Below are positions 14,925 through 41,508 of a stretch of DNA of 64,000 nt, piece after piece. The position numbers and the translations under genes were made by a program. The notes under the pieces are model-generated. The model saw only the letters and a list, made by a program, of their open reading frames with translations. It was not told where the DNA came from and ran no database searches. The stretch comes from an uncultured Desulfobacter sp. (GTDB lineage: Bacteria > Desulfobacterota > Desulfobacteria > Desulfobacterales > Desulfobacteraceae). The stretch's first letter is position 1. Every line of letters begins with the position of its first letter. The stretch is taken from contig OY762069.1 in NCBI GenBank assembly GCA_963665095.1, forward strand, positions 3,488,001-3,552,000, read 5' to 3'.

Positions 14925-14964
14925 TTATAGATTGCCATTACTATCCAATGGAGCTGCAATTGAA

Positions 14965-15588: not shown

Positions 15589-15812
15589 AAGAACCGCTTT
15601 TAAACAGGAGCATATAATTAAGATGGTCTCCCAGAAAAACTATTTTCCAGGAATTAATTTTCCCCTGGTCCTTTTAACCACATCAATTTTCTGGATTCCC
15701 GGGGCATGTATGAGCTTTAATCATGCAGAACCTGGTTTGTTTTTTTCCACAACCCACCTTGTTTCCGATGAAACAAGATAATTTAAACTAGTTATTCAGG
15801 AATTATCACATC

Positions 15813-17155: not shown

Positions 17156-17377
17156 TTATTCCCAGGCTTGAAGTTCATCATCCGGTAAAGGGTCAAAAAA
17201 GGCGTCTGTCACTCGGCCGTTGGCGATGCCGGGCTTTCTGTGCGCCTGTTTTTTCAGTGGGACCAGTCTGGCATAGGGTTTTCCCGCTTTGGAAATAATA
17301 ATTTCCTCACCGGCATGAACCCGCAGCAGCAACTTTGAAAAATGAGTTTTTGCTTCATGAATATTTATTGATTCCAT
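17156..17377 (-). CDS. Phd/YefM-family antitoxin
   Basis: NIHEAKTHFSKLL...EEIIISKAGKPYARLVP; directly upstream of vapC. Confidence 0.9.
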   Translation of the reverse strand: MESINIHEAKTHFSKLLLRVHAGEEIIISKAGKPYARLVPLKKQAHRKPGIANGRVTDAFFDPLPDDELQAWE

Positions 17378-17482
17378 TCTGTCAGCCCCCACCATAGGTT
17401 AGTCCATTTGCCTTAGTCTACCTCTTTAACGAGAATCATGTCAAGATATAGAGGCTTTTACTCGTTTCGAAGCTCAACCGTG

Positions 17483-18496
17483 TCAGCAGATCCGGGGCAG
17501 CTGCTCCCCGACCAGCATATCCACAATGCGGGTGCCGCCGATAAGGGTTTCGAGTATTACCCGGCCGGGATCCTGGTCTGTGACCTCTCCTACGATCACG
17601 GCCTCTTTGCCGAACTCATCTTTGTGGATGGTTTCAAGGACCTTTTGGGCATGGGCTTCGGGGACAATGGCGATGAGTTTTCCTTCATTGGCAAGATATA
17701 AGGGATCAAAGCCTAAAAGTTCGCAGATGCCCTGGACCGGACCGCGGACCGGCAGCTTTTCTTCAAAGAGCTTGATGCCCACTTTTGACTGAACGGCAAT
17801 TTCGTTCAATGTCGTACCAAGTCCACCGCGAGTGGGATCGCGCAGGACATGGACCGGGCATCCCAGGTCCAGAATAGCCTGAACCATATGGTTTAACGGG
17901 GCGGAGTCGCTTTTTACATCAGAGTCGAATTTCAATCCTTCCCGTTCGCTTAAGATGGTAACCCCGTGGTCGGCAATGGTGCCGGAGACAATCACTTTGT
18001 CTCCGGGCTGGGCACAGTCGCCGGAGACATTTACGCCTTCCCGAATTAGTCCGATCCCGGACGTATTAATGAAGATCTTGTCTACCTTGCCTTTGGGCAC
18101 TACTTTGGTATCGCCGGTGACGATCTGAACCCCTGCTTTTCTGGCCGCATCGGCCATGGAGTGAAGAATGCGTTTAAGATCTGCTGTCTTCATGCCCTCT
18201 TCAATGATCAGTCCCACGGAGAGGTACAAAGGTTTGGCCCCGCACATGGAGACATCGTTGACCGTGCCGTTAACCGCCAGCTCCCCGATATCCCCGCCGG
18301 GGAAAAAGATGGGATCCACGGTATAGGAGTCAGTTGAAAAGGCAAGTTTTCCCGCAGGCACATCAAATACGGCTCCGTCATCCTGCCTGGCCAGGTGGGC
18401 ATTTTCAAACAGGGGCAGAATCATTTCCGCAAACATGGCGTGGGAGGCTTTGCCCCCGGCGCCTTGGTCCAGAAGAACTGTATCATTATCGCTCAT
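17483..18496 (-). CDS. hypE: Hydrogenase maturation protein HypE
   Basis: GAGG, NGTVND, VTGDTKVV, RDPTRGG and C-terminal PRIC. Confidence 0.97.
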   Translation of the reverse strand: MSDNDTVLLDQGAGGKASHAMFAEMILPLFENAHLARQDDGAVFDVPAGKLAFSTDSYTVDPIFFPGGDIGELAVNGTVNDVSMCGAKPLYLSVGLIIEEGMKTADLKRILHSMADAARKAGVQIVTGDTKVVPKGKVDKIFINTSGIGLIREGVNVSGDCAQPGDKVIVSGTIADHGVTILSEREGLKFDSDVKSDSAPLNHMVQAILDLGCPVHVLRDPTRGGLGTTLNEIAVQSKVGIKLFEEKLPVRGPVQGICELLGFDPLYLANEGKLIAIVPEAHAQKVLETIHKDEFGKEAVIVGEVTDQDPGRVILETLIGGTRIVDMLVGEQLPRIC

Positions 18497-18584
18497 GTTA
18501 TTATCCTTGATTTTCCGGGATCCCAAAGCACCGGCCGAATCCGGCGCGGCAGTTACCTGATCCAGGATCAATTGTCCTTGTATC

Positions 18585-19673
18585 TTACCGGCTGTATTTA
18601 TAAAAGGCAGCACACGACCCTTCGCTTGACACCATGCAGGGCCCCACCGGATGCATGGGGGTGCAGGCCTTTTTATATAGTTTGCACTCATCCGGCCGTT
18701 TCAGACCCATTAAAATCTGTCCACAGGCGCATCCGGGCGGCTCTTTTGTTTCAGGGACGGACATCTTAAATTTTCCGGCGGCATCAAATTGACTGAACTC
18801 CTTTTTCAGGACCATACCGGAATCAGGAATGGGGCCAATCCCCCGCCACAGGGCATCTCCCTTTTCAAACGCCTGTTCCATGACGGCCCGGGCTTTGGGG
18901 TTTCCGGCATCTGCCACAGCCCTTGGATAGGCGTTAACCAGTTCGGGCCGGCTTCCTTCATTCATCTCCACCAGCATGAGGACGGACTGAAGGATATCTA
19001 CCGGTTCAAACCCTGTGACCACTGACGGGATCTGATACTTTTCAAAGGTATCATAGAAAGCATCCAGCCCGGTGATCACGGATACGTGTCCCGGCAGAAT
19101 AAATCCGTCAATTTTCACCCCATCGGTTTCCATGAGTGCGGCTAAGGCCGGCGGGGTCAGTTTGTTGGCGCTATAGATGCTGAAATTTTCCACCCCCTGG
19201 GCTTTCGCCGTAAGAACAGCGCCGGCAATGGTGGGAATGGTGGTTTCAAACCCCACGGCGCAGAAGACCACCTCTTTATCCGGGTTCTCTTTGGCCACGG
19301 CAAGGGCATCAAAAATAGAGTAAACCATGCGAACATCGGCACCTTTGGCCTTTTCTGCGGCCAGGCTGGATCCGGAGCCCGGCACCTTCATCAGATCTCC
19401 GAAGGTGGTCAGAATCACCTCGGGTCTTCGTGCCAGCATGACATAGGCATCAATGTCCTTCTGGGCGGTGACGCACACAGGACACCCCGGCCCTGAGAGC
19501 AGTGTGATGGTATCCGGCAGCACAGACCTGATGCCGTAACGAAAGATAGCCATGGTATGGGTGCCGCACACCTCCATCAGACGCAAGGGTTTGCGGCTTT
19601 TTTCACGAATCTGGGTCACCAGGGCCTTGGCAAGTTCCGGGTCCCTGAATTCCTTGCTGTATGTCAAGCTCAT
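18585..19673 (-). CDS. hypD: Hydrogenase maturation protein HypD
   Basis: MEVCGTH, GPGCPVC, GFETT, PGHVS and CMVSSEGSC. Confidence 0.97.
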   Translation of the reverse strand: MSLTYSKEFRDPELAKALVTQIREKSRKPLRLMEVCGTHTMAIFRYGIRSVLPDTITLLSGPGCPVCVTAQKDIDAYVMLARRPEVILTTFGDLMKVPGSGSSLAAEKAKGADVRMVYSIFDALAVAKENPDKEVVFCAVGFETTIPTIAGAVLTAKAQGVENFSIYSANKLTPPALAALMETDGVKIDGFILPGHVSVITGLDAFYDTFEKYQIPSVVTGFEPVDILQSVLMLVEMNEGSRPELVNAYPRAVADAGNPKARAVMEQAFEKGDALWRGIGPIPDSGMVLKKEFSQFDAAGKFKMSVPETKEPPGCACGQILMGLKRPDECKLYKKACTPMHPVGPCMVSSEGSCAAFYKYSR

Positions 19674-19701
19674 GGGCTGCCTTTATCTGCTTTATTATAT
19701 G

Positions 19702-22146
19702 TCAATGGATCCCGCCGGGTTCCGATTTAATCTTTGACCCCGGCCGAACCTGCTCCAGGGCTGCTGCGGCCATGACCTGGCCAAGGGCAATGCCTGCATC
19801 CCCGCAGGGGACAATGGTGTGGGTATACACCTTAAACCCTTTTGTTTCAAGCAAGCGGGAAATTAAAGAAAAAATGGTATCATTATTAAACACCCCGCCG
19901 GAAAGCACCACCCGGTCAAGGCCGGTCTGCTGCCGGACCTGGTCGGCTGCCGCCACCATCATCTCCGACAGGGTCAGATGAAACCGGGCCGAAATCAGGC
20001 CCGTGGAGACACCGTCTCTGATATCGGCCACCATCTGCTGCACACAGGGTGATAGATCCATGATCAGACACGGGGGCAACGTCGAATCCATTTCCGAATG
20101 CTGACCCGGAGCAGAATTCTGACCCGAACTCTGACCCGAACTCTGACCTGTCCGGATCTCAAAGGAATAGGCTGCCTGATCTTCCTGCTGTGGATCTGCC
20201 GCCGCCTCAAGGGCCATGGCCGCCTGGCTGTCGTAGGTGATGGTCCGGCAGATCATCAGAAGCGCGGCCACGGCATCAAAGAGCCGGCCCGTGCTGGAGG
20301 TCAAAGGAGAGTTCACCTGCCGGTCTATCATCTGGATCAAAAATGAAAGTTTTTTTTCATCCAGGCTCCGGATAAAGGGGATGGGAAGGGTTACTGTTTC
20401 CGGGCCGAACACCTTATATAACAGGGAGACCGCCATGCGCCAGGGTTCCAGAACTGCTGCATCCCCGCCGGGCATGGGCAGGTAATCCAGCCGGGCACAG
20501 CGGTCAAACCCCTCATAGGTACAGGCCAGAATCTCTCCCCCCCAGATATGGCCGTCCGTGCCAAGGCCGGTGCCGTCCAAGGTCAGGGCAAGGACCTTTC
20601 CATCCAGATGATTTTCCGCCATGCAGGAGAGCGCATGGGCATGGTGGTGCTGGACCCCTGCCAGGGGCAGGCCCTCTTTTTCCAGCATCCGGGCGTATTG
20701 GGTGGAAAAATATCCCGGGTGAAGATCGCCTGCCACACAGTCCGGCCGGATATCCATAATTTTTTGCATGTGCCCGATGGTCTCTTTGTAAAATCCCTGC
20801 ACCTGAAGGGATTCCAGATCCCCGATGTGGGGACTTAAAAACGCATATCTGCCCTTTGTCAGGCAGATGGTGGATTTCATCCCCGCCCCGCATCCAAGGA
20901 TATTGGGAAGGCCTTCCCCTGCCAGGGGGCCTAAATCCACAGGCAGCGGGGCATATCCCCTGGACCGCCTTAAAAAACGGACCTTTCCCTTTTGAATCCT
21001 GGCAATGGAATCATCTGCCCGGAAAAAGATCTCCCGGTTGTGGAGCAGAAAATAGTCGGCAATATGGGAGAAGGCATCCAGGGCATCGTCATTATCAATG
21101 GAGAGGGGTTCGCCGGAGCGGTTTCCCGAGGTCATGACCAGAATACCGGGCCCCTTGTCTAACAGAAGATAGTGCAGCGGGGTGTAGGGCAGCATGATCC
21201 CCAGACACAGGTTGTCCAAGGATAGGTTGGCCGCAAGGCCCGCCCCCTGAATCCGGGCCGAATCCTTTTTATTTAGTAGTACAATGGGCCGGTGATAGGA
21301 GCGTAGAAGCGCTTTTTCATCTTCATCCATATCCACATGGTCGAACAGCGGCGAATCCCAGGGCGCCATCAGGGCAAAGGGTTTATGGGGGCGCTTTTTT
21401 CTTTGGCGCAAAAGTCCCACCGCATGGGCATTGGCCGCATCCACAGCCAGATGAAACCCGCCAAGACCCTTGACTGCCACAATTTTCCCCTGGGCCAGGA
21501 ACTGTGCCGCAAGCGAGATGGCCTTTGCCGGATCCCCGCCATCCACGGGGTTCCCGCAGCTGTCCGTGAGAAACACCTTGGGTCCGCAAACCGGGCAGGC
21601 ATTGGGCTGGGCATGAAACCTTCGGTCATAGGGATCTTCATATTCCCTTTGGCAGTCCGGGCACATGGGAAAGGATTTCATGGAGGTTTTGGGCCGGTCG
21701 TAGGGGATGTCCTCGATGATGGTGTATCTGGGCCCGCAATTGGTGCAGTTGATAAAGGGATATTCAAACCGGCGGTCGCCCGGGTCCTGCATCTCTTTAA
21801 GACAGTCCGGACAGACCCCCACATCCGGGGAGATCAGGGTGGATCGGGTCTCAGCGCCCTGGCTTTTAATAATTTTAAAATCTGTAAAATCCCCGGGAGT
21901 GGTCTCCTGCGCCACAATATTTGAAATCTGCGACAGGACAGGTTTTTTTTTAAGGATATCTGAAAGAAAGGCATCCAGGTCACAAGTGCTGCCCTGGACA
22001 AAAAGCGTCACGCCGGAAGCGGTATTGGCCACATGGCCGCAAAGATGATGGACCCTGGCAAGGCCGAATAAAAAGGGGCGGAATCCAACACCCTGAACCA
22101 CCCCTGAAATCTCTACCTTTTTTGCCGAAAGGCCGGAATCACCCAT
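19702..22146 (-). CDS. hypF: Carbamoyltransferase HypF
   Basis: GVVQGVGFRPF, zinc-finger CxxC pairs, KGLGGFHL, QHHHAH and GGVFNN. Confidence 0.97.
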   Translation of the reverse strand: MGDSGLSAKKVEISGVVQGVGFRPFLFGLARVHHLCGHVANTASGVTLFVQGSTCDLDAFLSDILKKKPVLSQISNIVAQETTPGDFTDFKIIKSQGAETRSTLISPDVGVCPDCLKEMQDPGDRRFEYPFINCTNCGPRYTIIEDIPYDRPKTSMKSFPMCPDCQREYEDPYDRRFHAQPNACPVCGPKVFLTDSCGNPVDGGDPAKAISLAAQFLAQGKIVAVKGLGGFHLAVDAANAHAVGLLRQRKKRPHKPFALMAPWDSPLFDHVDMDEDEKALLRSYHRPIVLLNKKDSARIQGAGLAANLSLDNLCLGIMLPYTPLHYLLLDKGPGILVMTSGNRSGEPLSIDNDDALDAFSHIADYFLLHNREIFFRADDSIARIQKGKVRFLRRSRGYAPLPVDLGPLAGEGLPNILGCGAGMKSTICLTKGRYAFLSPHIGDLESLQVQGFYKETIGHMQKIMDIRPDCVAGDLHPGYFSTQYARMLEKEGLPLAGVQHHHAHALSCMAENHLDGKVLALTLDGTGLGTDGHIWGGEILACTYEGFDRCARLDYLPMPGGDAAVLEPWRMAVSLLYKVFGPETVTLPIPFIRSLDEKKLSFLIQMIDRQVNSPLTSSTGRLFDAVAALLMICRTITYDSQAAMALEAAADPQQEDQAAYSFEIRTGQSSGQSSGQNSAPGQHSEMDSTLPPCLIMDLSPCVQQMVADIRDGVSTGLISARFHLTLSEMMVAAADQVRQQTGLDRVVLSGGVFNNDTIFSLISRLLETKGFKVYTHTIVPCGDAGIALGQVMAAAALEQVRPGSKIKSEPGGIH

Positions 22147-22156
22147 ACAGACAAAG

Positions 22157-22387
22157 TCAGGCCGGGCCGCCGCCCAGCTCAAGAATTTTGCGCATGTCTG
22201 CAATGGTCTGAAGTGCTGCTTCCTCATCCACTTTGGATATGGCAAATCCGGCATGAACAATGACATAATCACCGATACCGGCATCTTCGAGCAGCATCAG
22301 GCTTGCCTCTCGGACCACTCCGTCCACTTCCACCTTTGCCACTGCATTGTTGATTTCAATTATTTTTGAAGGTACGGCCAAACACAT
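22157..22387 (-). CDS. hypC: Hydrogenase chaperone HypC
   Basis: MCLAVP N-terminus; VIVHAGFA. Confidence 0.97.
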   Translation of the reverse strand: MCLAVPSKIIEINNAVAKVEVDGVVREASLMLLEDAGIGDYVIVHAGFAISKVDEEAALQTIADMRKILELGGGPA

Positions 22388-25111: not shown

Positions 25112-25419
25112 TTTAAGAGCTTACAGCAGATCCAATCCCATGGCCCTTAAAAGTTTAATCCTTCTCTCTTTCCCTGCATTTAGAACGTGGTAAAGATCTT
25201 TTCATAAATTCCTTGGGGAGGTGGCGTTTTGGGCAGCATGCGGTATTTATCAATTTTCTGTACGGGTTTGGTGCCGGTAATGGCGGATGCAATACTATCC
25301 GGATGCGGGCCGGGGGCATATGTCCTGGACTGCAATCCCTTTGCGCCGGTCAATCCTATAACGGTTGTATCAAGGGTGAACATCCTGTGTTATGCCGTGG
25401 TCTTTTTCTGGTTCCGTAT

Positions 25420-26365
25420 GTTCGAGGCGGTCCCGGTGGCCCGGGGCCTGACCTACAAGGAGGCCGGGGCCAGGCTCTATATTTCCGAACGAACGGTCAA
25501 GTACCACATGGGAGAGATTGTGGAGCGCCTGCAGCTTGCCAACAAGCACCAGGAATCGACAACAACACGCCGGTCTTTTCTGAAGACCGCCGCTGCCTCG
25601 ACACTGCTGATGGCCAGCGGCAGCACCGGTTTAATCTCCGGGTGTGACCGCGATAAACCTTTTGTCGTAAGCGCTTATTCGAAAATCCTGCTCCATGATT
25701 TCCGCCTCTTTGACGGTATTCAGGGCCAATTGAGCAACAACCTGGTGATTCCGATAGCTGGTGACCGGATCGAGGGCATCGAACAGGCGGGAAGCCTTGA
25801 ACAGTACAGGGATTATCACCGTATCGACTTGAAGGGAATGACGCTCCTGCCGGGGCTCATCGACAATCATGTCCATATCACGGTTCCCTTTATGTACAAC
25901 GTAAACCTGCAGGCGGCCTGGCAGATGAACGAGCAGGTCGGGCGCAACTTTAAAAATTGCATCCTCAACGGTGTGACCACCGTCCGGGATGTGGGCGGCT
26001 TTCCCGGAAAAATCAACCGCTTTCGCGAGATGTGTGACCGCGGCGAAATCCCGGGACCCCGCGTTGTCAGCTCTCTCTCGCCTATTGCCGCACGGGATGG
26101 CAACCTGCTCGGGGCTCCCGAAGCGGCAGAGCAGATGTCATCCAGGCTGACGGCTTTTCTGGAGAACGAAAACCGGACCTTGGAAGGCGAAGCCTATGAG
26201 AACCTGCAGGGCCACCCGGTCTATGAACGAAAAATGTTTCCCAACGTTCTGGCCAATCTCAGGAAGCTTTACGATTCCGGCGCCAAAATCGGCGTCGGAA
26301 CGGATATCCGGGCCATGGACAGGTTGCGGTTCGTTATGAAAGGCGGTGTCGTATACCCTGTCTGA
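25420..26365 (+). pseudogene. Chimeric remnant: LuxR HTH fragment joined to a Tat-signal amidohydrolase with internal deletions
   Basis: GLTYKEAGARLYISERTVKYH (LuxR), TRRSFLK (Tat), LLPGLIDNHVH, GVTTVRDVG, GTD and VMKGG; too short for an intact enzyme. Confidence 0.65.
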
Positions 26366-30078: not shown

Positions 30079-30565
30079 GGAAGCAACCATCTGAAACTAT
30101 GGCGTGAAGATGGGGATTGAAATTCAGAAAGTGGCCGTATGTCTGAACAGCAATACTGGCACCGGGAACAGCATCTCAATCCGGGACCGTAGATTTAAGG
30201 TACACTGTAATAACATTCCATGCGCATTTAGAAAGTTTTGCCAGTAAAGTGCGGTCATAGAAAAAATAAATCCGTAACCGTTTAGGGATGCTGAAAACCC
30301 ATTGTCGGTAGGAAACATCCTTTAAAACATTGGTCAGCAGCCATTCTCCATATTCGACAACCCTTTTCTGATGACAGGAGGGGCAAAAATGCCGGCGCTT
30401 GCAAGAAAATGCCAGGAGGTACTCATGGCCACATTCTTCACAACGGCCCCGGCACCCCCCCTATGAAGATCACCACAGTCGAGATATCTGTAAATCACAG
30501 TCATGACGTATGTTCGCCAATAGCCATATCGGGATTTATACATATCATCCCACACCCGTTCCAAC
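30079..30565 (-). mobile_element. IS91-family (HUH rolling-circle) transposase remnant
   Basis: YLDCGDLH, then after a frameshift CEECGHEYLLAFSCKRRHFCPSCHQKR, QWVFSIPKRLR, an internal stop, and QTYGHFLNFNPHLHAIVSDGCF. Confidence 0.85.
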
Positions 30566-30765
30566 TCTTTGGACATCCGGATGCCTATTTCCCCGGGAGA
30601 GCGGGTCCCCGCCCCCATGATGATCCGTTGGACCTGCCGGATAAAACCACCAGGGAAAAATAAGCATCAATCACCTTGACAAGCCTTGTCTCATCAAGTA
30701 ATCCTGAAAAAAATTGCAATTGAAATTGCAACCCGGCAGGTGCCCATGTTGACAGACAAAATTTT

Positions 30766-30818
30766 GCCAGGAAGGCTGAATAGATGGATTTATCTATAAG
30801 GCTTTCCCGGCTTTTTTT
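30766..30818 (+). terminator. Leader terminator/attenuator upstream of aspA
   Basis: GCCAGGAAGGCT...GGCTTTCCCGGC plus T7, about 40 nt before the ATG; TTGACA at 30676. Confidence 0.65.
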
Positions 30819-30857
30819 GTTTAGAGGGGTAATGCACAGTTTTTACAGGATATAACC

Positions 30858-32294
30858 ATGAACAGCCAGAACGAGTTGATGCGCCGTGAACATGATGCTT
30901 TAGGAGAGATGGAAATCCCGGCCAATGCCTACTACGGCATCCATACCATGCGGGCAAAGCAGAATTTCCCTTTTTCAACCGCCACCATTCCTGCCCCGTT
31001 TATCCGGGCGTTGGGACAGGTGAAGCAGGCCTGTGCCCGGACCAGCATTGATATAGGCTTTCTTGATCCGGAACCGGGAGAGGCCATCATCAAGGCCTGT
31101 GAAGAACTTGAAACCGGACAGTTGTCTGCGCACATTGTGGTGGACCCCTTCCAGGGCGGGGCCGGTACCTCCACCAATATGAACGTCAATGAGGTCCTTG
31201 CCAATCGCGCCGAAGAGATCCTGGGCGGCAGTCCCGGCCAGTACCGGCTGGTTCACCCCATCCATCACGTCAATAAGTTTCAGTCCACCAATGATGTCTA
31301 TCCCACGGCCCTGAAAGTGGCGGCCCTGGGGCTATTAGTGACCCTTGAAAATGAAGTGGCGGTCCTCCAGCAGGTACTCCAGGAAAAGGAAGGGGAGCTG
31401 CGCAACATTGTGAAGGTGAGCCGTACGGAACTGGTGGATGCCGTTCCCATGACCCTGGGCATGACCTTTGGGGCCTTTGCCGAGGCTGTGGCCCGTGACC
31501 GCTGGCGCATTTTTAAAAGCCGGGAGCGGATCAAGCGGGTGAACCTTGGCGGCACCGCCATTGGCACAGGCCTGGGTGCGCCCAGGGATTATGTGCTGAA
31601 GGTAACGGAAAATTTGCGCCATATCTGCGGGCTGCCTGTATCCCGGGCCGAAAACCTCATGGACGCCACCCAGAATATGGACCCCTTTGTGGAGGTGTCG
31701 GGCATGCTGAAAGCGTATGCCGCCAACCTGCTGAAGATTTCATCGGATCTGCGCCTGCTTGCCAGCGGGCCTGACACAGGCATTGGTGAAATTACCCTTG
31801 AACCGCTACAGGCAGGATCCTCAATCATGGCCGGCAAGATCAATCCGGTCATGCCCGAAGCAGTCACCCAGGTGGCGCTGAAGGTGATGGGCAATGACCA
31901 GACCATCGGCCTGGCCGCAGGCATGGGACAGCTGGAGCTTAACCACCTGATGCCGCTTCTGGCACATACCTTCCTGGAGTCTTTAATGCTGCTCATCAAC
32001 GCCACCAGAGGGCTTGCCACACGCTGCATCCCCGGCATCAAAGCCAACACGGTGCAATGCCTTTCCCATGTGATGCAGAGCACAGCCCTTGCAACGGTGC
32101 TGGTGCCGGTGCTGGGTTATGACCGGGTGGAAGAGATTGTCCGGGCGGCAAAGGCATCTGGCCGCTCCATCCGGGAAGAGATTATCCATCAGGATATTGC
32201 TTCCGAAGAGATTGTTGACACACTGCTGTCACCCAAACGGCTCTGCAAGTTAGGCTTTATTCCCGATGAGTTCGATGGGGTAAACAGAAAATGA
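30858..32294 (+). CDS. aspA: Aspartate ammonia-lyase
   Basis: YYGIHTMRA, QGGAGTSTNMNVNEV, QSTND and GSSIMAGKINPVMPE. Confidence 0.9.
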   Translation: MNSQNELMRREHDALGEMEIPANAYYGIHTMRAKQNFPFSTATIPAPFIRALGQVKQACARTSIDIGFLDPEPGEAIIKACEELETGQLSAHIVVDPFQGGAGTSTNMNVNEVLANRAEEILGGSPGQYRLVHPIHHVNKFQSTNDVYPTALKVAALGLLVTLENEVAVLQQVLQEKEGELRNIVKVSRTELVDAVPMTLGMTFGAFAEAVARDRWRIFKSRERIKRVNLGGTAIGTGLGAPRDYVLKVTENLRHICGLPVSRAENLMDATQNMDPFVEVSGMLKAYAANLLKISSDLRLLASGPDTGIGEITLEPLQAGSSIMAGKINPVMPEAVTQVALKVMGNDQTIGLAAGMGQLELNHLMPLLAHTFLESLMLLINATRGLATRCIPGIKANTVQCLSHVMQSTALATVLVPVLGYDRVEEIVRAAKASGRSIREEIIHQDIASEEIVDTLLSPKRLCKLGFIPDEFDGVNRK

Positions 32295-32341
32295 AGTTCA
32301 TGACAGGATTGAAAAAGGATTTCCCCTAAGGAGAATTGCTT

Positions 32342-33547
32342 ATGTCCAGTAAGGCCCCCCGCGGTGTTCGTCTCGTTATTGCGCTGGTTGGCAGGCGCAA
32401 TGCGGGAAAATCGTCTCTTATCAATGCCATTTCCGGACAACAGATTGCCATTGTTTCCGACCACCCGGGTACCACCACGGACCCTGTGGCCAAGCAGTAC
32501 GAGCTTCTGCCTCTGGGGCCGGTCACCTTTTATGATACAGCCGGGCTGGATGACGAGGGAGAACTTGGCGACCTGCGTGTCAAAGCCACCCGCAGGATTC
32601 TGTGGCGGTCGGATGTGGCTGTGGTGGTGGTTTCAGAGCACGGCATCACCGATTATGAAAAAAAGATCATTGATGAAATCCGCGAACTGGAAATCCCCTT
32701 TATCATGGTGTTCAACAAGAGTGATTTAAAAACACCTTCTGGCGAAGAGCTTGCCTTTTGCAAGGATAATTCACTGCCGTATATTGTCACTTCCGCCCTG
32801 GACGGGGTGAATGTCACGGCGGTGAAAGAGGCGATCATCGACATTGCCCCGCCCGAAATCAAGCGTGAGCCGGTCCTGGCCGGCGATTTGATCAGTGAGG
32901 GCGACTGGGTGGTCTGCGTGGTACCCATTGACCTGGCCGCCCCCAAGGGACGGCTGATCCTGCCCCAGGTCCAGGTGCTGCGTGAAATCCTGGACTGCGA
33001 TGCCCTGGGGATCATGGTTAAGGAGAGGGAGATTGACGAGGCCCTTTCGGGTCTGAGCCGGAAGCCCGCACTGGTGATCACCGATTCCCAGGTGGTGATG
33101 AGCGTGGCAGGAGACGTGCCTGAAGATATCCCGCTCACCACCTTTTCCATCCTGTTTGCCCGGTACAAGGGGGATATCGGCCAGCTCATCGCCGGGGCCG
33201 CCGCCATTGATGATCTTAAGGACGGGGACCGGGTCCTCATTGCCGAAGCCTGCTCCCACCATCCGGTGGCTGACGACATCGGCCGGGTTAAAATCCCGCG
33301 CTGGATCAACCAGTACACAGGCAAGGATTTGCATTTTGATGTCTATTCCGGCCACGATTTCCCCGACGACCTGGAGAGGTACAGGCTGGCGATCCATTGC
33401 GGGGGGTGTATGATCAACCGCGTGGAAATGCTGCGCCGGATCAAGGAGTGCCGCCGCCGGGGGGTGGCCATTACCAATTTCGGCCTGGCCATCTCCAAGG
33501 TCCAGGGGGTGTTTGACAGGGTGATAAAACCGTTTGGGAGGATGTGA
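32342..33547 (+). CDS. hydF: [FeFe]-hydrogenase H-cluster maturation GTPase HydF
   Basis: GRRNAGKSS, DTAG, NKSD, APKGRLILPQ, EACSHH...HCGGCM. Confidence 0.96.
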   Translation: MSSKAPRGVRLVIALVGRRNAGKSSLINAISGQQIAIVSDHPGTTTDPVAKQYELLPLGPVTFYDTAGLDDEGELGDLRVKATRRILWRSDVAVVVVSEHGITDYEKKIIDEIRELEIPFIMVFNKSDLKTPSGEELAFCKDNSLPYIVTSALDGVNVTAVKEAIIDIAPPEIKREPVLAGDLISEGDWVVCVVPIDLAAPKGRLILPQVQVLREILDCDALGIMVKEREIDEALSGLSRKPALVITDSQVVMSVAGDVPEDIPLTTFSILFARYKGDIGQLIAGAAAIDDLKDGDRVLIAEACSHHPVADDIGRVKIPRWINQYTGKDLHFDVYSGHDFPDDLERYRLAIHCGGCMINRVEMLRRIKECRRRGVAITNFGLAISKVQGVFDRVIKPFGRM

Positions 33548-35214
33548 TGCCTCCTGGAAAAAGCGGTACTGTTTTTGCCGGCAAGATTTTAGACCCGCCA
33601 CCTTCGGCCCGCCGAAAAATTTTCTGCCCGGGCAATACCCTGATTGTCTGCGCAAGACTGGCCTGCGGGCATGTGGAGGAGGCCTGGAGTTCCGGCCGGA
33701 TGATGCGCAACATGGATCTGCTGCTCCAGGGGGAGCTGGATGAACAGAGTCGTCCCTGTTTTGCCCTTCGGGCCAACGGTCTGTGCAATGCCGGGCATAA
33801 GCTGGCTGCAGTGCGGGCACTGGAAAACCTGGCCGGGATAACGCCGCCCAGAAATGCCTGTCTGGCCCGCAGCCTGGTCCAGGCCCTTCGATGTATTCAG
33901 GAGCATCTGCTCCATTTCTATCAGTTTCACCTCTCCAACTGGACCTGTCTGGCACCGGCCCTGCGGGCGGATCCCTGTAAAACAGCCCGGCTGGCCGAGA
34001 ATTCTGGCCGGGCAACCGGATATTTCAGGCAGTGCCAGCAGCGACTGCAGCCCCTGGTCCAAGGCAAAGGGATCAACGGGTTGGGTCTGCGGGATCATGA
34101 GGATTACTGCGGATCAAATGAGTTCCATCTTCTGGTCTTCAGCCACAGCCTGGAATCCCTCCAGACACAGGCGCTGCTCAACAGGGCGTTAGGGTTGATG
34201 GGCTATGAAAACGGGCGGTGTAAAGCCTATCATATGGGTGGCCTTCCGGAAGATCTGAACCTGGGCGGAAAGGTTCTGCAGCACCTGCGCGATCTTCTTT
34301 TGCAATGCCGGGATTTTGTCTGTTCCGTTTTCCTTAAAGACCTTGAACAGGTGGCCCGAACCTATGGCCATTGGAAAGATCTGGCCAAAGGAAATACCTT
34401 TCTGGCCCTGGGCGATTTTGGCCGCCCCCGTGACAGCGAAGGTCAGCTCTTTCCGGCCGGTATTATCTGTCTGGAAGGGGTGACCCCAAAAATTGATCCG
34501 GTGCAGACCGGCCGGATCCGGGAAGATAAGAACCCGCAATGGAACCGCCTGGACCAGGGACACTACCGTCTGGATTTTGGGGATCATGGCCCTGGATTTC
34601 ACTGGGGTAAAGGTGATTTTCACTGGCTTACAGCCCCCCGCCACGGCAGCCACCCTTGCGAGGCCGGGCCCCTGGCCCGGGTGGCCGGCGCCTTTGCCCA
34701 TGGCCAGAAGGCGGTACACCAGGCGGTCAATGACTCTCTTGCCGCCAGCGGGCTTGAACCCGAAGATCTGAACTCCGCTTTGGGCCGCCTGCTGGCCCGG
34801 GGCATTGAATCTTCGGTGCTGGCCCAGACCACCCTGGCATGGCTTGAGGAGTTGGAGACCTCTCTATCCCCGGGAGAGAGCAGGATGGGCGAAGAGGTCC
34901 GCCTGCCTGCCGCAGGTATTGGCATCGGTCATGTGGAGGTGCCAAGGGGGGCTCTGACCCACACCATCCAGGTGGAAAAAAACAGAATCATCCGCCATGA
35001 CTATCTTATTCCCTCGTTGTGGAATTTTTCCCCGCGGGATTCAAACCAGGTGCGCGGCCCTCTGGAACAGGCGCTTTTGGGAACGCCGGTGACTGATCCG
35101 GATCACCCCCTGGAAATTTTACGCATTGTACATGCATTTGATCCCTGCAACCCCTGTCATGTGGTGGTGGAGGACATGGATTCCGGGAAGACGACTGTGG
35201 TGGATGGGGAATAG
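33547..35214 (+). CDS. Degenerate [NiFe]-hydrogenase large-subunit homologue
   Basis: AWSSG, RANGLC (for RxCGxC), HLLHFY, EAGPLAR, EVPRGALTH, WNFSPRD, GPLEQALLGTP and FDPCNPC; TGATG coupling to hydF. Confidence 0.85.
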   Translation: MPPGKSGTVFAGKILDPPPSARRKIFCPGNTLIVCARLACGHVEEAWSSGRMMRNMDLLLQGELDEQSRPCFALRANGLCNAGHKLAAVRALENLAGITPPRNACLARSLVQALRCIQEHLLHFYQFHLSNWTCLAPALRADPCKTARLAENSGRATGYFRQCQQRLQPLVQGKGINGLGLRDHEDYCGSNEFHLLVFSHSLESLQTQALLNRALGLMGYENGRCKAYHMGGLPEDLNLGGKVLQHLRDLLLQCRDFVCSVFLKDLEQVARTYGHWKDLAKGNTFLALGDFGRPRDSEGQLFPAGIICLEGVTPKIDPVQTGRIREDKNPQWNRLDQGHYRLDFGDHGPGFHWGKGDFHWLTAPRHGSHPCEAGPLARVAGAFAHGQKAVHQAVNDSLAASGLEPEDLNSALGRLLARGIESSVLAQTTLAWLEELETSLSPGESRMGEEVRLPAAGIGIGHVEVPRGALTHTIQVEKNRIIRHDYLIPSLWNFSPRDSNQVRGPLEQALLGTPVTDPDHPLEILRIVHAFDPCNPCHVVVEDMDSGKTTVVDGE

Positions 35215-35241
35215 GGCCGGATAAAAAACTGGAAATAACAC

Positions 35242-36255
35242 ATGATGAAACGAAAAAACATATTAGACGCACTGAAAGATAAAGCCGGGCAGGAGGATCT
35301 CTTTGCAGCGGCAGACCAGGTGCGTAAAACCAACCTGGGCGACACAGCCCAGCTGCGCGGCGTGGTCCATTTTTCAAATTACTGCCGGTGCAACGACCTT
35401 TACTGTGGTCTGCTCAAGGATAATCCCGGGTGCAAACGGTTCCGCATGGGTGAAGATGACATTGTGGACACAGCCCTGGCCATTGCCGGCGCCGGCCTGA
35501 AAACCGTGGTCCTGCAGTCGGGTGAGGACCTTTATTACACAAGGGAAATGCTTTGTTCGGTTATTGAGCGGATACTTTCAAAGGCGGATGTGGCCATTAC
35601 CCTGAGTCTTGGGCAGCGGCCCAGAAAGGATTTTCAGGCGTTCCGGGCCGCCGGTGCCCAGCGCTATCTCATGAAGCATGAGACCATGAACCCGGACCTT
35701 TATTCAAGGATGCGTTCGGGCCTGACACTGTCTGACCGGCTGAAGACCATTGATGACCTGCGGGAACTTGGGTTCCAGGTGGGCGTGGGCAATATTGTGG
35801 GCCTGCCCGGCCAGACGATTGCGGACCTGTGCGAGGATATCCTGTTTTTCCAGGATTTCCAGCCGGATATGATCAATATCGGCCCTTTCATCCCCCATGC
35901 CCAGACCCCGCTCAAAGATGAACCGGCCGGGGATATAGAGCTGATGCTCCGGGTGTTTGCCCTGACACGAATTGTCACCGGCAACACCCACATGGCTGCG
36001 GCCAACACTGTGGCCACCCTGGACCCTGAACAGGGCCAGTACCGGGCACTGACCCAGGGCGGCGCCAATGTTATCATGCCCAACTGCAATCCGTTTCAAA
36101 AAAGTAAAACAGACAAAATAGAATATGAGTTTCAGATTACCACCCATAAACGGTATGTGTCCGTGGATGAGGCAAGAAATGTGCTTAAACGGGCAAAGCG
36201 AACTATAGACAAGGGGAAAGGACACTCCCTTAAAATAAAAGGAGACGCGTTTTGA
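35242..36255 (+). CDS. HydE-like radical SAM enzyme with a non-canonical cluster motif
   Basis: SNYCRCNDLYCG, VVLQSGED, RYLMKHET, VGLPGQT, IGPFIPHAQTPL and GANVIMPN. Confidence 0.88.
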   Translation: MMKRKNILDALKDKAGQEDLFAAADQVRKTNLGDTAQLRGVVHFSNYCRCNDLYCGLLKDNPGCKRFRMGEDDIVDTALAIAGAGLKTVVLQSGEDLYYTREMLCSVIERILSKADVAITLSLGQRPRKDFQAFRAAGAQRYLMKHETMNPDLYSRMRSGLTLSDRLKTIDDLRELGFQVGVGNIVGLPGQTIADLCEDILFFQDFQPDMINIGPFIPHAQTPLKDEPAGDIELMLRVFALTRIVTGNTHMAAANTVATLDPEQGQYRALTQGGANVIMPNCNPFQKSKTDKIEYEFQITTHKRYVSVDEARNVLKRAKRTIDKGKGHSLKIKGDAF

Positions 36256-37007
36256 TTAAAGTCGCCATATACGGCAAGGGAGGCATTGGTAAATCCACAG
36301 TGACATCAAGCATTTCTGCTGCCTTAGGCGTTCAGGGATACAATGTCATGCAGATCGGCTGCGATCCCAAGACCGATTCCACCATCAATCTTCTGGGCGG
36401 TAAGGCCCTGACTCCCATCCTTCAGTATCTCCAGGAACAGGGACGTCCTGATACCCTGGACGATATTTCCAGGCGCGGGTTTGCCAATACTGTCTGCATG
36501 GAGGTGGGCGGTCCCACCCCGGGGGTGGGCTGCTTTGGCCGGGGCATGCTGACAGCCTTTGAACTCCTGGACGAGATGGGGGCCTATGATACCTGCCGGC
36601 CGGATGTTGTGTTTTACGATATCATGGCTGATGTGGTGTGTGGCGGCATTGCCGTGCCCATGCGCGAGGGGTTTGCCGACAAGGTCTGCATTGTCACTTC
36701 CGGCGAAAAGATGGCGCTTTTGGCAGCAAAAAACATTATAACGGCCCTGCGCAATTTTGCCGACCGCAACTACGCCGAACTTGGCGGGCTGATCCTCAAC
36801 TGCCGGGACATGCCTGACGAAGTGGCGCGGGTGGACGCCTTTGCAAAGGAGATGCAGACCGAAGTGATCGGGGTGATCCCCCGGGACAGGGCCATCCATG
36901 CGTTTGAGGAGGATGGCAAAACCATTGTGGAGGGGGATCAGACCCTGCCCACCTCGGTCTGTTTTTTTGATTTGGCTAAAACCATTATCGGGTTTAAAAG
37001 TGAATAA
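36252..37007 (+). CDS. Nitrogenase iron-protein-like reductase (NifH/NflH family)
   Basis: YGKGGIGKST, GCDPK, GGPTPGVGCFGRG and DVVCGG; TTGA overlap with the hydE-like gene. Confidence 0.92.
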   Translation: MIKVAIYGKGGIGKSTVTSSISAALGVQGYNVMQIGCDPKTDSTINLLGGKALTPILQYLQEQGRPDTLDDISRRGFANTVCMEVGGPTPGVGCFGRGMLTAFELLDEMGAYDTCRPDVVFYDIMADVVCGGIAVPMREGFADKVCIVTSGEKMALLAAKNIITALRNFADRNYAELGGLILNCRDMPDEVARVDAFAKEMQTEVIGVIPRDRAIHAFEEDGKTIVEGDQTLPTSVCFFDLAKTIIGFKSE

Positions 37008-37017
37008 GGATATTTGT

Positions 37018-38316
37018 ATGGATCTGGATCAAGCCCGCATCAGGGTTGAACATTTACGCAAGAAGCCGGATTTTCCCTTTGCGCCTCTGGAAGGGGTTGG
37101 CCCGAACCTGGCCGGCTGGGGGGTGATCGAGACCTCCCTGATTCTGCCCGAGTCTGTGGCAGTGATGGTGGGGCCCTCGGCCTGCCTGCGCCATTCAGCC
37201 TTTATGGCCCATGCCAGGGGTTTTACCGAACGCTTTTATATGCTGTGCGTGCCGGAACTGGACATGTCCATGGGTAATCATCTGTCCCGGGTGGAGGCCG
37301 CCATCAAGGATATTGCGGACCGGCGCAGTGAAAAGGTCCTTTTCCTGATTGTGGGGTGTCCGGACTATATCCTGGGCACGGATTTCACAGGCGTGATCAA
37401 ACGCCTGGAGGCATCCACGGGCAAAAAAATAATTCTGGGGGCCATGGCGCCCATTACCATCGGGATGAAAGAGTCACCCTTTACCTCGGCCTATACCTCG
37501 TTTTTTGAGTTTTTAAAGGATGAGCCCCGGGTGCCGGATGACGGGGTGGTCAACCTTTTAGGAACTTTTATGCCGCTGTCGGATGACGGGGAGTTTTATC
37601 AGGTGCTGTCGGCCGCCGGCATGGATACGGTGCTGCAGATTCCCTTGTGCCGGGATCTGAAGCAGTTTTCAGGCATGGCCCATGGCCGGGCCTCGGTGGT
37701 CCTGCACCCCCTGGCCAATGGCCTGAGCGGCAAAATGGAGAAGGAGATGGGCATTCCCGCCTGTTTTGCCCCCACCTCCTACGGGTTTTCCGTGATCCGG
37801 GACCTTTACGGAAAAATCAGCGAGGCTGTGGGAAAACCTTTGGATATTGAATCCCATGAACAGTCGGCACGCAAGGCGGCGGAACCGTTGCTTGAAAATT
37901 TACGCGGCAAATCTGCGGCCGTGGGCTGCAGCATTAACGGAAGCCCCTTTGAACTGGCCCTGTTCCTGGTTCAACATGGTGTGAATGTGGAGACCATTTT
38001 TGCCCGGGGCGCCATCAAACCTTACGAATGGGACCTCATCGAACAGTTGCGCGGGGCAAAACCGGATATCCAGGTATACAATGCCTCCCATCCGGCCTTG
38101 TGCGGGCAGACAACCCCTTTTAACCAGGTGGAGATCGCCTATGGCGTTGACGCGGGCATTTTCTGTGTCAATGCGGCCAATGTGCCGCTGTCACGCTACC
38201 AGGAGCAGAAATACGGGTTTGAAGCCACGGTCTGGATGCTGGAACATAGCTGCGAGGCCCTGGCCAATCCGGTGGACAACTATGACTGGATCTACCGGCA
38301 CAATTTTTTGATATAA
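37018..38316 (+). CDS. Nitrogenase component-1-like subunit (alpha-type, group IV)
   Basis: GPSACLRH, VGCPDYILGTD, VVNLLG and PFELALFLVQHG; follows the nifH-like gene. Confidence 0.82.
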   Translation: MDLDQARIRVEHLRKKPDFPFAPLEGVGPNLAGWGVIETSLILPESVAVMVGPSACLRHSAFMAHARGFTERFYMLCVPELDMSMGNHLSRVEAAIKDIADRRSEKVLFLIVGCPDYILGTDFTGVIKRLEASTGKKIILGAMAPITIGMKESPFTSAYTSFFEFLKDEPRVPDDGVVNLLGTFMPLSDDGEFYQVLSAAGMDTVLQIPLCRDLKQFSGMAHGRASVVLHPLANGLSGKMEKEMGIPACFAPTSYGFSVIRDLYGKISEAVGKPLDIESHEQSARKAAEPLLENLRGKSAAVGCSINGSPFELALFLVQHGVNVETIFARGAIKPYEWDLIEQLRGAKPDIQVYNASHPALCGQTTPFNQVEIAYGVDAGIFCVNAANVPLSRYQEQKYGFEATVWMLEHSCEALANPVDNYDWIYRHNFLI

Positions 38317-38325
38317 GGATCATTT

Positions 38326-39543
38326 ATGAAAGAATATCATCATCTCCTCCCCCTGGCCACGGGCTATTTCGGGGTCAGTTCGGCGCTCTATGATTTCGGT
38401 GGGTTAGTGGTCATCTACGGGCCTGCGGGCGGTGCATGGCATATCAATATCGAGGATGAACCGCGCTGGTACCGGGGGCCTGCCACGGTTGTCGGGGCAG
38501 GGCTTCTGGAAATGGATGTCATCCTGGGCAATGACGACAAATTCATCAACAATATCGTGAAGACCGCCAAAGGGTTGAACAGCCCGTTTGTGGCCCTGTC
38601 AGGCACCCCGATCTCGGAAATTATCGGGACAGACCTTAAAGGGTTTGCCCGGACCGTGGCAGCCCGGACCGATATCCCGGTGTTCATGGTGCCCACGGCC
38701 GGCTCCGAACCCTATCCCGAGGGCGCATCCAAAGCGCTTCTGGCCCTGGCAGACACCTTTATGGACCCGGATGCCCCTAAACGCCCCAAAGGGGTCAATG
38801 TGCTTGGGGCCATTCATCTTTCCACGGGCAAGGAAGGCCATCTTGATCCTCTGTTCAAAGCGGTTCAGGATGACGGGTTTGAACTGGTAAGTGTCCTTTC
38901 AGCCCCGGTTTCCGGACAGGAAGATCCCCTGGAGGGCGTGCGCATGGCACCGGGAGCCCGGATCAATGCCGTGGTCTCCACCAGCGGGATCGCCCTAGCT
39001 GAAAAAATGTTTGCAGAATATAAAATCCCCTTTGTGGCGGGCATGCCTGTGGGGCTGTCCGGCCGTGACGCCTTTCTGGCCATGCTGCACAGGGAAAGCC
39101 CTGATTTTCAGGTACCAAAGAAAGAAAAAACACCCTATAAACACGCCCTGATCATTGGCGAGCCGGTTCTTGGATATGGGATCCGGCATTGTCTGCGCTA
39201 CGACTTTGGCATCCCAAAGGGGGACGTGGTCTCAGTGACTCCCAGCGATCCACTTTTCAAGGCGTCCCAGGGCCGGGCAGGCCTTTTGGCCGAACGTGGA
39301 CCGGCTGACCTGGACACAGATGACGAACAAGCGATAGCCCAACTCATGAACAACCGGGAAGTGGACCTGGTGGTGGCAGACCCCTGTTACCAGCCCCTGC
39401 TCAAGAATAAGGCCGCTTTCATCCCTGTACCCCATGTGGCCATGAGCGCCCGCATCCATTGGGACATGGACTACGAATACGTTATGGACAACGGTTACGC
39501 CTATCTGGCGTCCTATTTGTCAGGCAATGGCCCCTGTTTATAA
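38326..39543 (+). CDS. Nitrogenase component-1-like subunit (beta-type, group IV)
   Basis: DEPRW, GTPISEIIGTD, VNVLG, GMPVG, LIIGE and VVADP. Confidence 0.8.
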   Translation: MKEYHHLLPLATGYFGVSSALYDFGGLVVIYGPAGGAWHINIEDEPRWYRGPATVVGAGLLEMDVILGNDDKFINNIVKTAKGLNSPFVALSGTPISEIIGTDLKGFARTVAARTDIPVFMVPTAGSEPYPEGASKALLALADTFMDPDAPKRPKGVNVLGAIHLSTGKEGHLDPLFKAVQDDGFELVSVLSAPVSGQEDPLEGVRMAPGARINAVVSTSGIALAEKMFAEYKIPFVAGMPVGLSGRDAFLAMLHRESPDFQVPKKEKTPYKHALIIGEPVLGYGIRHCLRYDFGIPKGDVVSVTPSDPLFKASQGRAGLLAERGPADLDTDDEQAIAQLMNNREVDLVVADPCYQPLLKNKAAFIPVPHVAMSARIHWDMDYEYVMDNGYAYLASYLSGNGPCL

Positions 39544-39645: not shown

Positions 39646-41508
39646 TCAACTGCGGCAGACTTTCGGCAAAGGAACGGCCAGGCTTAAATATTTGCCGTTT
39701 TCCTCAAACATCAATTTTTTATCTGTCATCATTTTCAAAAAAGGTGTTACTTTTTCCCGGGTCAATTCCTGAAAATGAAGAAGAATTTTTTCCAGTGACC
39801 GGTGCTGGCCGCAATAGAGATAGACTTCCCTGGAAAGCCCTTCCAGGCGGTGAGTTAAGGGCTCTTTTAAGAGCCGCTTCTGGCGGATAATCATAAACTC
39901 TTTTCCATCCCGATAACTTAGAATCGGCGTATCACCACCGGTTTGATGAATCCGGGTATATGTTTTTTCCCAGTCATGAACTTTTTGTCTCACCGGCCGC
40001 CACAGTTTTTTCTGGTATCCCATGTCACCGCGGTACCTCTGGATCAGAAAGGTCATGCTGCGGTGAATATGTTCCGGAAAAATTTTTGCATAATTGGGAT
40101 GGTTAAAAAGGGCCTTGACCCCAAAGTGCTCTGGATCATTGTATACACAGCTTCCATGGCCCATCCAGAAATGCACCAGTTTGGGAGGACGGAAAACCGC
40201 TGCAAACTCAATGTTTCGGAGGGTTTCATTCATGTCTTCAATATCACTGCCGGGAAAATGAAGTATCAGGTTGGCATTATTGGCAATACCTAAGCCTTCA
40301 CAGTGCTTCATGATTTCCAGATTCTGAATGGCGGTGGTTCCCTTGTTTAATTTTTTCAACAGACGGGAGCTTAAGGATTCGATACCGATCTGTACTTCGC
40401 TGACGCCGGCACAGCTCATTTTTTCCAGTACCCGTTTTGGGGTGGTGGCCCTGAGTTCACAGAAAAGTTTGAGGTCTTTTTTTAATCCGGACAGTTGATC
40501 AAACATCTCCAATGCGGTTTTTACCGGTATGAGGTTGTCCATGAACGTCACGGAAAGTGTGCGATATTTTGAAGTCAGATAATCTATTTCTCTGCTTACC
40601 TGTTCCGGGCCTTTGCACCGGTATCCCTGCCAGTTACGGTTAAGATTGCAAAAAGCACAACCTGAATGTCCTGAGTTGGAAGCCTGCCACCGGCATCCCC
40701 GGGAGGCCTCGGCCGGGAGCGCAGGGAAAAAACTTTTATCCGGCGCTCCTGTTTTCAGTAAATAAAAATAGTCGTCATAATCGGGAGCAGGCAGATTTTT
40801 GAGGTCTGGCATCTGGCCAAAGGTTACCGGGGCTTTACTTCTGCAGGAATGACGCGTAACAAGGCCGGGAATGCGGGAGATAGTATCAGTGTCAGCTGAA
40901 TTGCCAAGATGATGCACAAGGCTGCACAGGGGTCGTTCTCCTTCACCGTTAATGACAAAATCAATTTCCGGGAAAGCCTCAAAAAGGCCCTTAATGGTAT
41001 CTCCGGCAAACATGGAGCCGCCAATGACAATGGGGAGGGTTGGAAAGTTCTTTTTTATGGAACGGATAAAGTACAAAGAGGAGCAGAGCTGGCAAAAGCA
41101 GATTGAAAAGCCTGCCAGGCCCCAGCGATCCCAGTTGATACTGCGGATAAAGTCATCCGCAGTCTCTGCTGCCTGATGTGTGAGGACGTTGAAGTCGGCC
41201 CTGGATGACAGGGGCAGGCCCCTTGCTTCCTTGTGGAACAGCGCCTGGATGCGGTGGAATCGTTCCGGATATAAGAGCGCCGCATAAACGGATTCTGCCA
41301 GCCAGTTTTTTTTAGAAATTTCACGATAAAGGGGATAGCCGATGGCTGTTGCTAATTTCAAATAGAAATGGTGAGCCGCCACCTCAAGATCGGGAATCTC
41401 CCGGTTCAGGTATGCTTTCAGCGCACCAAGCTGAATGGATGGCCGGCTGAAAAGCGGCCAGGGGGCGGATATAAGCGCAATACGTGCTATTTGATTTTTA
41501 GAAATCAT
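39646..41508 (-). CDS. B12-binding-domain radical SAM enzyme (RiPP maturation methyltransferase family)
   Basis: PSIQLGALKAYL, NGEGE, PDYDDYF, SRGCRW-x9-CAFCNLN and QIGIESLS...LNKG. Confidence 0.82.
   Translation of the reverse strand: MISKNQIARIALISAPWPLFSRPSIQLGALKAYLNREIPDLEVAAHHFYLKLATAIGYPLYREISKKNWLAESVYAALLYPERFHRIQALFHKEARGLPLSSRADFNVLTHQAAETADDFIRSINWDRWGLAGFSICFCQLCSSLYFIRSIKKNFPTLPIVIGGSMFAGDTIKGLFEAFPEIDFVINGEGERPLCSLVHHLGNSADTDTISRIPGLVTRHSCRSKAPVTFGQMPDLKNLPAPDYDDYFYLLKTGAPDKSFFPALPAEASRGCRWQASNSGHSGCAFCNLNRNWQGYRCKGPEQVSREIDYLTSKYRTLSVTFMDNLIPVKTALEMFDQLSGLKKDLKLFCELRATTPKRVLEKMSCAGVSEVQIGIESLSSRLLKKLNKGTTAIQNLEIMKHCEGLGIANNANLILHFPGSDIEDMNETLRNIEFAAVFRPPKLVHFWMGHGSCVYNDPEHFGVKALFNHPNYAKIFPEHIHRSMTFLIQRYRGDMGYQKKLWRPVRQKVHDWEKTYTRIHQTGGDTPILSYRDGKEFMIIRQKRLLKEPLTHRLEGLSREVYLYCGQHRSLEKILLHFQELTREKVTPFLKMMTDKKLMFEENGKYLSLAVPLPKVCRS

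Follow-up and report, generated by a model that had tools for sequence, protein, structure and literature searches.

The described systems closest to the locus studied here are the HydEFG line of [FeFe]-hydrogenase (HydA) maturation, the Hyp line of [NiFe]-hydrogenase maturation and the nitrogenase-like (NFL) reductases. According to the accessible text of the papers cited here, HydE cleaves the C-S bond of cysteine, with Glu58 acting in cysteine breakdown in a computed mechanism, and its residues Met224 and Met291 bind Fe(I)(CO)2CN units for dimerization (PMC11826987, PMC10114646); AspA has been assigned a role as ammonia supplier (PMC11736057); the large subunit of [NiFe] enzymes, while nickel-free, carries Fe(CN)2CO from HypCD (PMC11565642); and MarHDK, one of the NFL enzymes, cleaves C-S bonds (PMC12552129). 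In its accessible part, a 2026 review of NFL enzymes nowhere mentions HydE, HydF or HydG (PMC13474568). We analyzed an operon that joins parts of these systems, located within a 64,000-nucleotide stretch of genomic DNA from an uncultured Desulfobacter sp. (contig OY762069.1, positions 3,488,001 to 3,552,000), referred to below as the window. The operon consists of aspA and hydF followed by a five-gene cassette encoding an altered [NiFe]-hydrogenase large subunit (HyL*), a HydE homologue with an altered motif (HydE*) and the nitrogenase-like proteins NflH, NflD and NflK. Based on gene content, residue comparisons and co-occurrence, we consider it quite likely that this operon serves HydG-free assembly of the H-cluster for HydA.

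Comparison of the operon with the described systems

Like the canonical HydEFG line, the operon system has an ordinary HydF (a GTPase with CxH...HCxxC), AspA, HydA targets with the L1-L3 motifs and a HydE barrel, in which the equivalents of Met224 and Met291 are present in 36 of 36 aligned rows; the TM1266-aspA-hydF frame is found in relatives. Unlike that line, HydG is absent, and NflHDK, HyL* and often hypCDE are added. HydE* itself departs from ordinary HydE in that Asp replaces the second Cys of the radical S-adenosylmethionine (SAM) motif, giving CxxxDxxC, in 35/36 rows (one truncated), compared to Cys in all 13 ordinary HydE proteins; His replaces Glu58 in 34/36 rows (two truncated), compared to Glu in 12 of 13 ordinary proteins, and the C-terminal lid is different. 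HydE* carries the Thr/Arg/Arg site, which we take to be numbered R54, T134 and R155 in HydE. Identification of HydE* as PylB or BioB was rejected, with scores of 119 and 79 bits, respectively. Judged from its genes, the operon appears to work like the HydEFG line yet falls outside it, with HydG absent and the HydE motif altered.

HyL* shares with the targets of Hyp maturation the large-subunit fold, the Fe-bridging Cys, the Arg and the Pro-Ser pocket, and many genomes have hypC, hypD and hypE linked with the cassette. Its predicted structure adopts the group 1 large-subunit fold (predicted local distance difference test score, 89.8; template modeling score, 0.78), and its sequence scored below the cut-off of all 8 NCBIfam large-subunit models that it matched. 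In a 55-row alignment, C80, H84, R467, P489 and Ser/Thr490 were found in 55/55 rows, C534 in 54/55 and C537 in 52/55; their roles in an Fe(CN)2CO pocket are presumably those of the equivalent residues in ordinary large subunits. Unlike a true [NiFe] large subunit, with two CxxC motifs plus an N-terminal Glu, HyL* retains the C-terminal DPCxxC and lacks the catalytic Glu, whose region reads CxGN, while the first Ni Cys is replaced within an N-terminal motif reading HCLC in the family and NGLC in the window copy. No small subunit, protease or hypAB was seen in the cassette, where the partners are [FeFe] maturases, and neither the window operon nor the loci of 25 other genomes have a cognate small subunit beside HyL*. 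A role as an active [NiFe] hydrogenase was rejected on the basis of its motifs; instead, HyL* is predicted to be an Fe(CN)2CO carrier. The HyL* subfamily comprises 55 clusters with 39-64% identity. With a profile built from carrier-type HyL* proteins, full-length members (633-860 bits) were detected in 21 of 251 genomes, every one a carrier of the cassette, compared to at most 440 bits for ordinary large subunits.

NflHDK shares the H-D-K architecture, NifH-type Cys, P-loop and component 1 fold with MarHDK, IsrHDK, dark-operative protochlorophyllide oxidoreductase (DPOR), chlorophyllide oxidoreductase (COR) and CfbCD (PMC13474568, accessible text). Unlike them, it scores under all named cut-offs, forms a separate clade and stands in a hydrogenase context, with no nifB or marB in the cassette. 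NflH has both cluster cysteines (C94 and C130) in 36/36 rows and lies under the NifH, CfbC, BchL and BchX cut-offs, scoring 267 bits against the 402 required for CfbC, a system whose D subunit is a single homodimeric one, whereas D and K are distinct here. Compared to the six P-cluster Cys spanning D and K of nitrogenase and MarHDK (PMC13474568, accessible text), NflD has two, C56 (72/73 rows) and C114 (73/73), and NflK has none, no Cys being conserved before residue 289 in 32 rows. The DPOR/COR arrangement of three Cys in N plus an Asp in B was likewise not found, with a score of 37 bits against 420 for the BchN/BchL models and ATGYFG in NflK at the relatives' Asp. NflD and NflK are far under every named family model, PF00148 being the sole match; NflD has the nitrogenase fold, with 11-18% identity to solved chains and MarD as its top solved match (E = 3e-19). 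Nearly all of its 79 homologues are 43-83% identical. In a quick tree, in which 15 of 73 rows came from the cassette, cassette NflD formed one separate clade (Shimodaira-Hasegawa-like approximate likelihood ratio test, 100), nested among the 1151 representatives of a wider family that includes fused NflD-NflK proteins; such fusions, of 770-900 residues (P0212-P0250), are the nearest relatives outside the clade.

By these comparisons, NflHDK belongs to the broad NFL superfamily, which takes in homologues of NifH, NifD and NifK that are not parts of true nitrogenases. Its identification as a true nitrogenase was rejected, as a separate nif cluster lies at C1:4.84-4.85 Mb, and the genome has three other nitrogenase-like sets elsewhere. 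One nflHDK set at C1:203560-211708 is accompanied by transport genes of the ATP-binding cassette (ABC) and TonB types, approximately 8 kb from a hydA of 618 residues; two further Nfl sets are found at C1:254.6-258.1 kb and C1:6139.8-6143.1 kb. Among the operon products, only AspA, HydF and HydE* score above curated cut-offs, while HyL*, NflH, NflD and NflK match Pfam with no NCBIfam family over its cut-off. An earlier note on this DNA had described ligand changes in the large-subunit, HydE and D/K homologues, together with intact Cys ligands in HydF and the NifH-like protein; residue alignments agree on both counts, the changes being mostly family-wide.

Distribution of the cassette and its association with hydA, hydG and hyp genes

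The cassette was defined as hyL*, hydE*, nflH, nflD and nflK. A first scan with a single protein returned one locus, and the remainder came from profile searches, giving 27 carrier genomes, with hydA in 27/27, hydF in 26/27 and hydG in 4/27. The order hyL*-hydE*-nflH-nflD-nflK was kept in 25/25 other carrier loci examined, two of them with frameshifts; one of the 26 other loci, split over small contigs, was left out of this count. The complete seven-gene order, with aspA-hydF joined to the cassette, occurred in 7 of these 25 genomes. Source names of the relatives include Pseudodesulfovibrio, Maridesulfovibrio, Desulfobaculum, Thermodesulfobium and Lebetimonas. The spread is patchy, with 24/251 genomes in one family (that of G151), 2/120 in the family of the window's organism, 0/19 in its genus and 0/150 in an order-wide sample. 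Across seven genome pairs (Nei-Gojobori counting), the ratio of nonsynonymous to synonymous substitution rates (dN/dS) was 0.06-0.26 for every gene of the operon except HyL*, for which it was 0.23-0.56; these values ruled out pseudogene status of the operon genes. The opposite outcome raised in the earlier note, a strain-unique order with dN/dS near 1, is not what the genomes show. Synteny and dN/dS support its proposal of a conserved, selected and undescribed metallocofactor system, and the seven-gene system is, by these sequence measures, conserved and under selection. No description of the cassette was found in the literature searched, a search outside of which lie most subscription papers and supplements; nor is it described in the accessible text of PMC9147875, PMC9447857 or bioRxiv 10.64898/2026.08.20.746119. 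Acetogens in which hydE and hydF occur and a clear hydG is missing have been reported, the cause being left open in the accessible text (PMC9431212).

Association with hydA was analyzed by family. In the G151 family, hydA was present in 24/24 carriers compared to 122/227 other genomes, and among genomes with hydF, hydG was present in 4/23 carriers compared to 88/99 others; because related genomes are not independent, we gave no weight to a p value. In the window organism's own family of 121 genomes, hydA was found in 20, and all three carriers have two hydA genes and no hydG. Many genomes are drafts; of the nine carriers in which the contig with the cassette spans approximately the whole genome, seven lack hydG. 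A second, weaker HydF-like gene (approximately 350-367 bits; frames of about 505 residues) was seen in several genomes, including G425, G507, G456, G380, G276, G470 and G341.

The loss of hydG can be read in place. Control operons (L085, L090 and L093) have the order TM1266-hydG-aspA-hydE-hydF, while in 12 of 18 hyd regions read from carriers aspA comes next after a TM1266-like gene and there is no intact hydG. One such region (L097) retains a hydG stub of 129 N-terminal codons, and in another (L104) hydG has an internal deletion, its last 41 codons being 90% identical to the intact L085 gene. Ordinary hydE was also lost in 7 of the 12 hydG-deleted regions, and HydE* is the sole hydE in 18/27 carriers. 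Moreover, hydA adjoins the cassette in 4/25 genomes and in the metagenome loci L026 and L028; the order in L026 is hydA-hydA-small subunit-TM1266-aspA-hydF-hydE*-nflHDK, then hypF (in L026, L028 and L030, absence of hydG refers to the operon slot).

The genome of the window, a single contig 97% complete, encodes two group A HydA proteins over the cut-off with L1, L2 and L3 intact, and its sole hydE and sole hydF are the operon copies. In a profile search of this genome for hydG, nothing came near the cut-off of 312 bits, the best scores of 33-48 bits belonging to HydE* and a PylB-like protein, and tblastn with a pair of HydG queries taken from other genomes revealed no remnant of the gene; the suggestion that hydF and hydE simply serve a hydA/hydG pair elsewhere in the genome can thus be set aside, hydG being absent. 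A PylB-like radical SAM gene lies at C1:896257-900638 amid genes that, named by eye, resemble a pyrrolysine cluster. Because hydA accompanies the cassette in every carrier and hydG was lost in place, the data point to a role of the Nfl module in H-cluster assembly for HydA.

The cassette is also linked to Hyp. The hypC gene follows nflK in 15/25 loci, and a complete hypD does so in 11/25; hypD occurs in 27/27 carriers, with a second copy in 13, and no altered motif was seen by eye in cassette HypD among 6 aligned copies. The window's genome has a single hyp set, located 8.5 kb from the operon and containing its only hypD. We infer that this hypEDFC set would supply the operon with Fe(CN)2CO.

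Candidate assembly route and rival explanations

On balance, the observations are probably best explained by a HydG-independent H-cluster route, likely fed with Hyp-made Fe-CO/CN units and with NflHDK as the likely reductant. We propose more tentatively how the labor would be divided into five steps. HypF, HypE, HypC and HypD would produce Fe(II)(CN)2CO, as for [NiFe] enzymes, and HypCD would place Fe(CN)2CO on HyL*, a nickel-free, unprocessed scaffold. In what is the weakest step, NflHDK would use ATP-driven, low-potential electrons to bring Fe(II) to Fe(I), and it would probably also cleave a C-S bond reductively to release the bridging sulfur, the task of radical chemistry in ordinary HydE. 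HydE* may then use its two methionines to bind a pair of Fe(I) units and dimerize them, after which HydF would add the amine bridge, with AspA as the likely ammonia donor for this dithiomethylamine bridge and with the glycine-cleavage H-protein, which is encoded in the genome, and would load HydA. The full route across three families, free of radical SAM chemistry, in which a Hyp unit on a dead large subunit is remodeled by Nfl, including CN/CO exchange, before non-radical dimerization by HydE*, is conceivable but falls short of probable.

Several observations weigh against this HydG-independent route. Each Fe unit made by Hyp carries two CN and one CO, whereas one CN and two CO are required in the precursor of the H-cluster, and the exchange that this mismatch calls for is an open gap in the proposal. 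HyL* evolves faster than the other products and is frameshifted in G400; L026 and L028 have no HyL* at the expected position, and Cys78, otherwise a feature of the family, is absent from the window copy. Only two interface Cys are evident in NflDK, making a metal site hard to place. Four carriers have a complete hydG; in one of these, G402, nflH is split at a C homopolymer, a feature not used as evidence because it may be a sequencing error. Eleven genomes have hydF with neither hydG nor the cassette, although in two of them a contig end truncates hydG. In G185 (L125) and G195 (L124), hydA is found with a sulfonate-type ABC importer, hydE, an aspA-like gene and hydF, and neither hydG nor an Nfl gene lies in the 20 kb read; these operons possibly import a ready-made iron unit. 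Finally, hydF is absent in 13 of 20 hydA-bearing genomes of the window organism's family, so hydA can persist without maturases.

Some of these points bear on other explanations. Rather than making Fe-CO/CN units anew, the cassette might recycle existing ones, taken from the environment or from damaged hydrogenases, or it might reactivate damaged H-clusters; the co-occurrence of intact hydG and the cassette in the four carriers, the hydEF operons that have an ABC importer and no hydG, and an ATP-driven reductase might all fit such salvage or repair. We nevertheless regard it as unlikely, since the dedicated second hypD of 13 carriers indicates synthesis, the window operon has no importer and repair alone would not permit the loss of hydG plus ordinary hydE. 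We judge it quite unlikely that NflDK reduces a small substrate by means of a non-standard organometallic cofactor assembled by HydF, HydE* and HyL*, with HydA incidental. The invariable position of hydE* directly 5' of nflH at every locus read, like nifB or marB elsewhere, and the missing standard cluster ligands of NflDK would agree with this, but it leaves hydA in all carriers and the in-place deletion of hydG unexplained, HydF is ordinary, over its cut-off and often still within the hydA operon, and neither a substrate transporter nor a catabolic gene is repeatedly found near the cassette in the loci mapped. The earlier note had likewise suggested that HydF and HydE may build a cofactor for the nitrogenase-like reductase; given the hydA and hydG patterns, the direction is probably reversed.

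That the cassette produces an altered diiron site for HydA, with a different CO/CN ratio or bridge, is very unlikely: the HydA motifs of carriers are standard, as are HydF and AspA, even if the Hyp stoichiometry is unlike that of the HydG synthon and the changes in HydE* (Cys to Asp, Glu to His and a new lid) are fixed. Mere coincidence, with an unused HydA letting hydG decay and the cassette being an unrelated mobile block with another job, we find highly improbable. Maturase-free hydA is common in the organism's own family and is reported in heliobacteria too (PMC9147875, accessible text), and the cassette is patchy, missing from the other genomes sampled in the organism's genus and order; against this, the hydF, aspA and hydA motifs are intact, hydF and aspA are under purifying selection, aspA-hydF is attached to the cassette in seven other genomes, and the pattern is repeated in two families and distant metagenome loci.

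Operon layout, surroundings and implications

The seven genes are intact and on the same strand (window 30858-39543), and open reading frames (ORFs), junctions and family scans agree with the earlier note in this respect. From aspA to nflK, the junctions are 44 nt, a TGATG overlap, 27 nt, a TTGA overlap, 10 nt and 9 nt.

Table 1. Features of the operon and its surroundings (window positions).
Feature	Position	Strand	Details
Long hairpin then T run, terminator- or attenuator-like, directly 5' of aspA	30754..30822	+	z -3.58; 0/200 shuffles equally stable
aspA, aspartate ammonia-lyase	30858..32294	+	NF008909, 606 bits vs cut-off 510; GSSIMAGKIN motif
hydF, H-cluster scaffold GTPase	32339..33547	+	TIGR03918, 557 bits vs cut-off 326; P-loop and CxH-x46-HCxxC intact
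HyL*, altered [NiFe]-hydrogenase large subunit	33547..35214	+	PF00374, 335 bits
HydE*, HydE barrel with CxxxDxxC	35242..36255	+	TIGR03956, 261.7 bits vs cut-off 254.6
NflH, NifH-like ATP-dependent reductase	36252..37007	+	PF00142; C94/C130
NflD, nitrogenase-like component 1 alpha-type subunit, two interface Cys	37018..38316	+	PF00148
NflK, beta-type subunit without P-cluster cysteines	38326..39543	+	PF00148
[NiFeSe] hydrogenase, small subunit included	10803-13237		In-frame TGA at large-subunit end; own protease alongside
hypE, hypD, hypF, hypC of neighboring [NiFeSe] hydrogenase	17483..22387	-	All four over NCBIfam cut-offs

The non-coding stretch before aspA, taken as a single leader in the earlier note, is not leader throughout, as part of it, at about 30080-30570, is a transposase-like repeat. 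This region recurs elsewhere in the genome at 75-91% identity, contains a short transposase-like ORF and looks like an insertion-sequence remnant. An Rfam scan of window positions 24000-46000, the hairpin included, returned no match. In G161 (L062:5745-5880), a hairpin and T run also lie 5' of aspA (z -4.92), unrelated in sequence to the window hairpin. A promoter and terminator scan gave 16 and 20 sites compared to 9.1 and 15.3 in shuffles, with nothing diagnostic.

The [NiFeSe] hydrogenase, its protease and hypEDFC (10803-22387) stand 8.5-20 kb upstream of the operon; the statement that the window lacks a small subunit is thus incorrect. Converging on nflK is a stand-alone B12/radical SAM gene (39646-41508, minus strand) over the cut-off for C-methyltransferases of ribosomally synthesized and post-translationally modified peptides (TIGR03975). 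At 25229-26365 (plus strand), one ORF combines a LuxR-type fragment, a signal resembling those of the twin-arginine translocation (Tat) pathway and a shortened amidohydrolase, and looks rearranged or decayed.

Since cultured carriers exist, e.g., species of Pseudodesulfovibrio, Desulfobaculum and Humidesulfovibrio, the question can be put to a direct test. The CO and cyanide of the H-cluster are attributed in biology to HydG alone, a view that a HydG-free route, if true, would overturn. It would also give a function to an uncharacterized nitrogenase-like clade and connect [NiFe] and [FeFe] hydrogenases at the level of biosynthesis; the three-family route, if true, would unite the assembly lines of three metalloenzyme families. 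Tyrosine-free maturation of [FeFe]-hydrogenases could then be on offer, and genomes scored as non-functional in [FeFe]-hydrogenase for want of hydG may have been misjudged.

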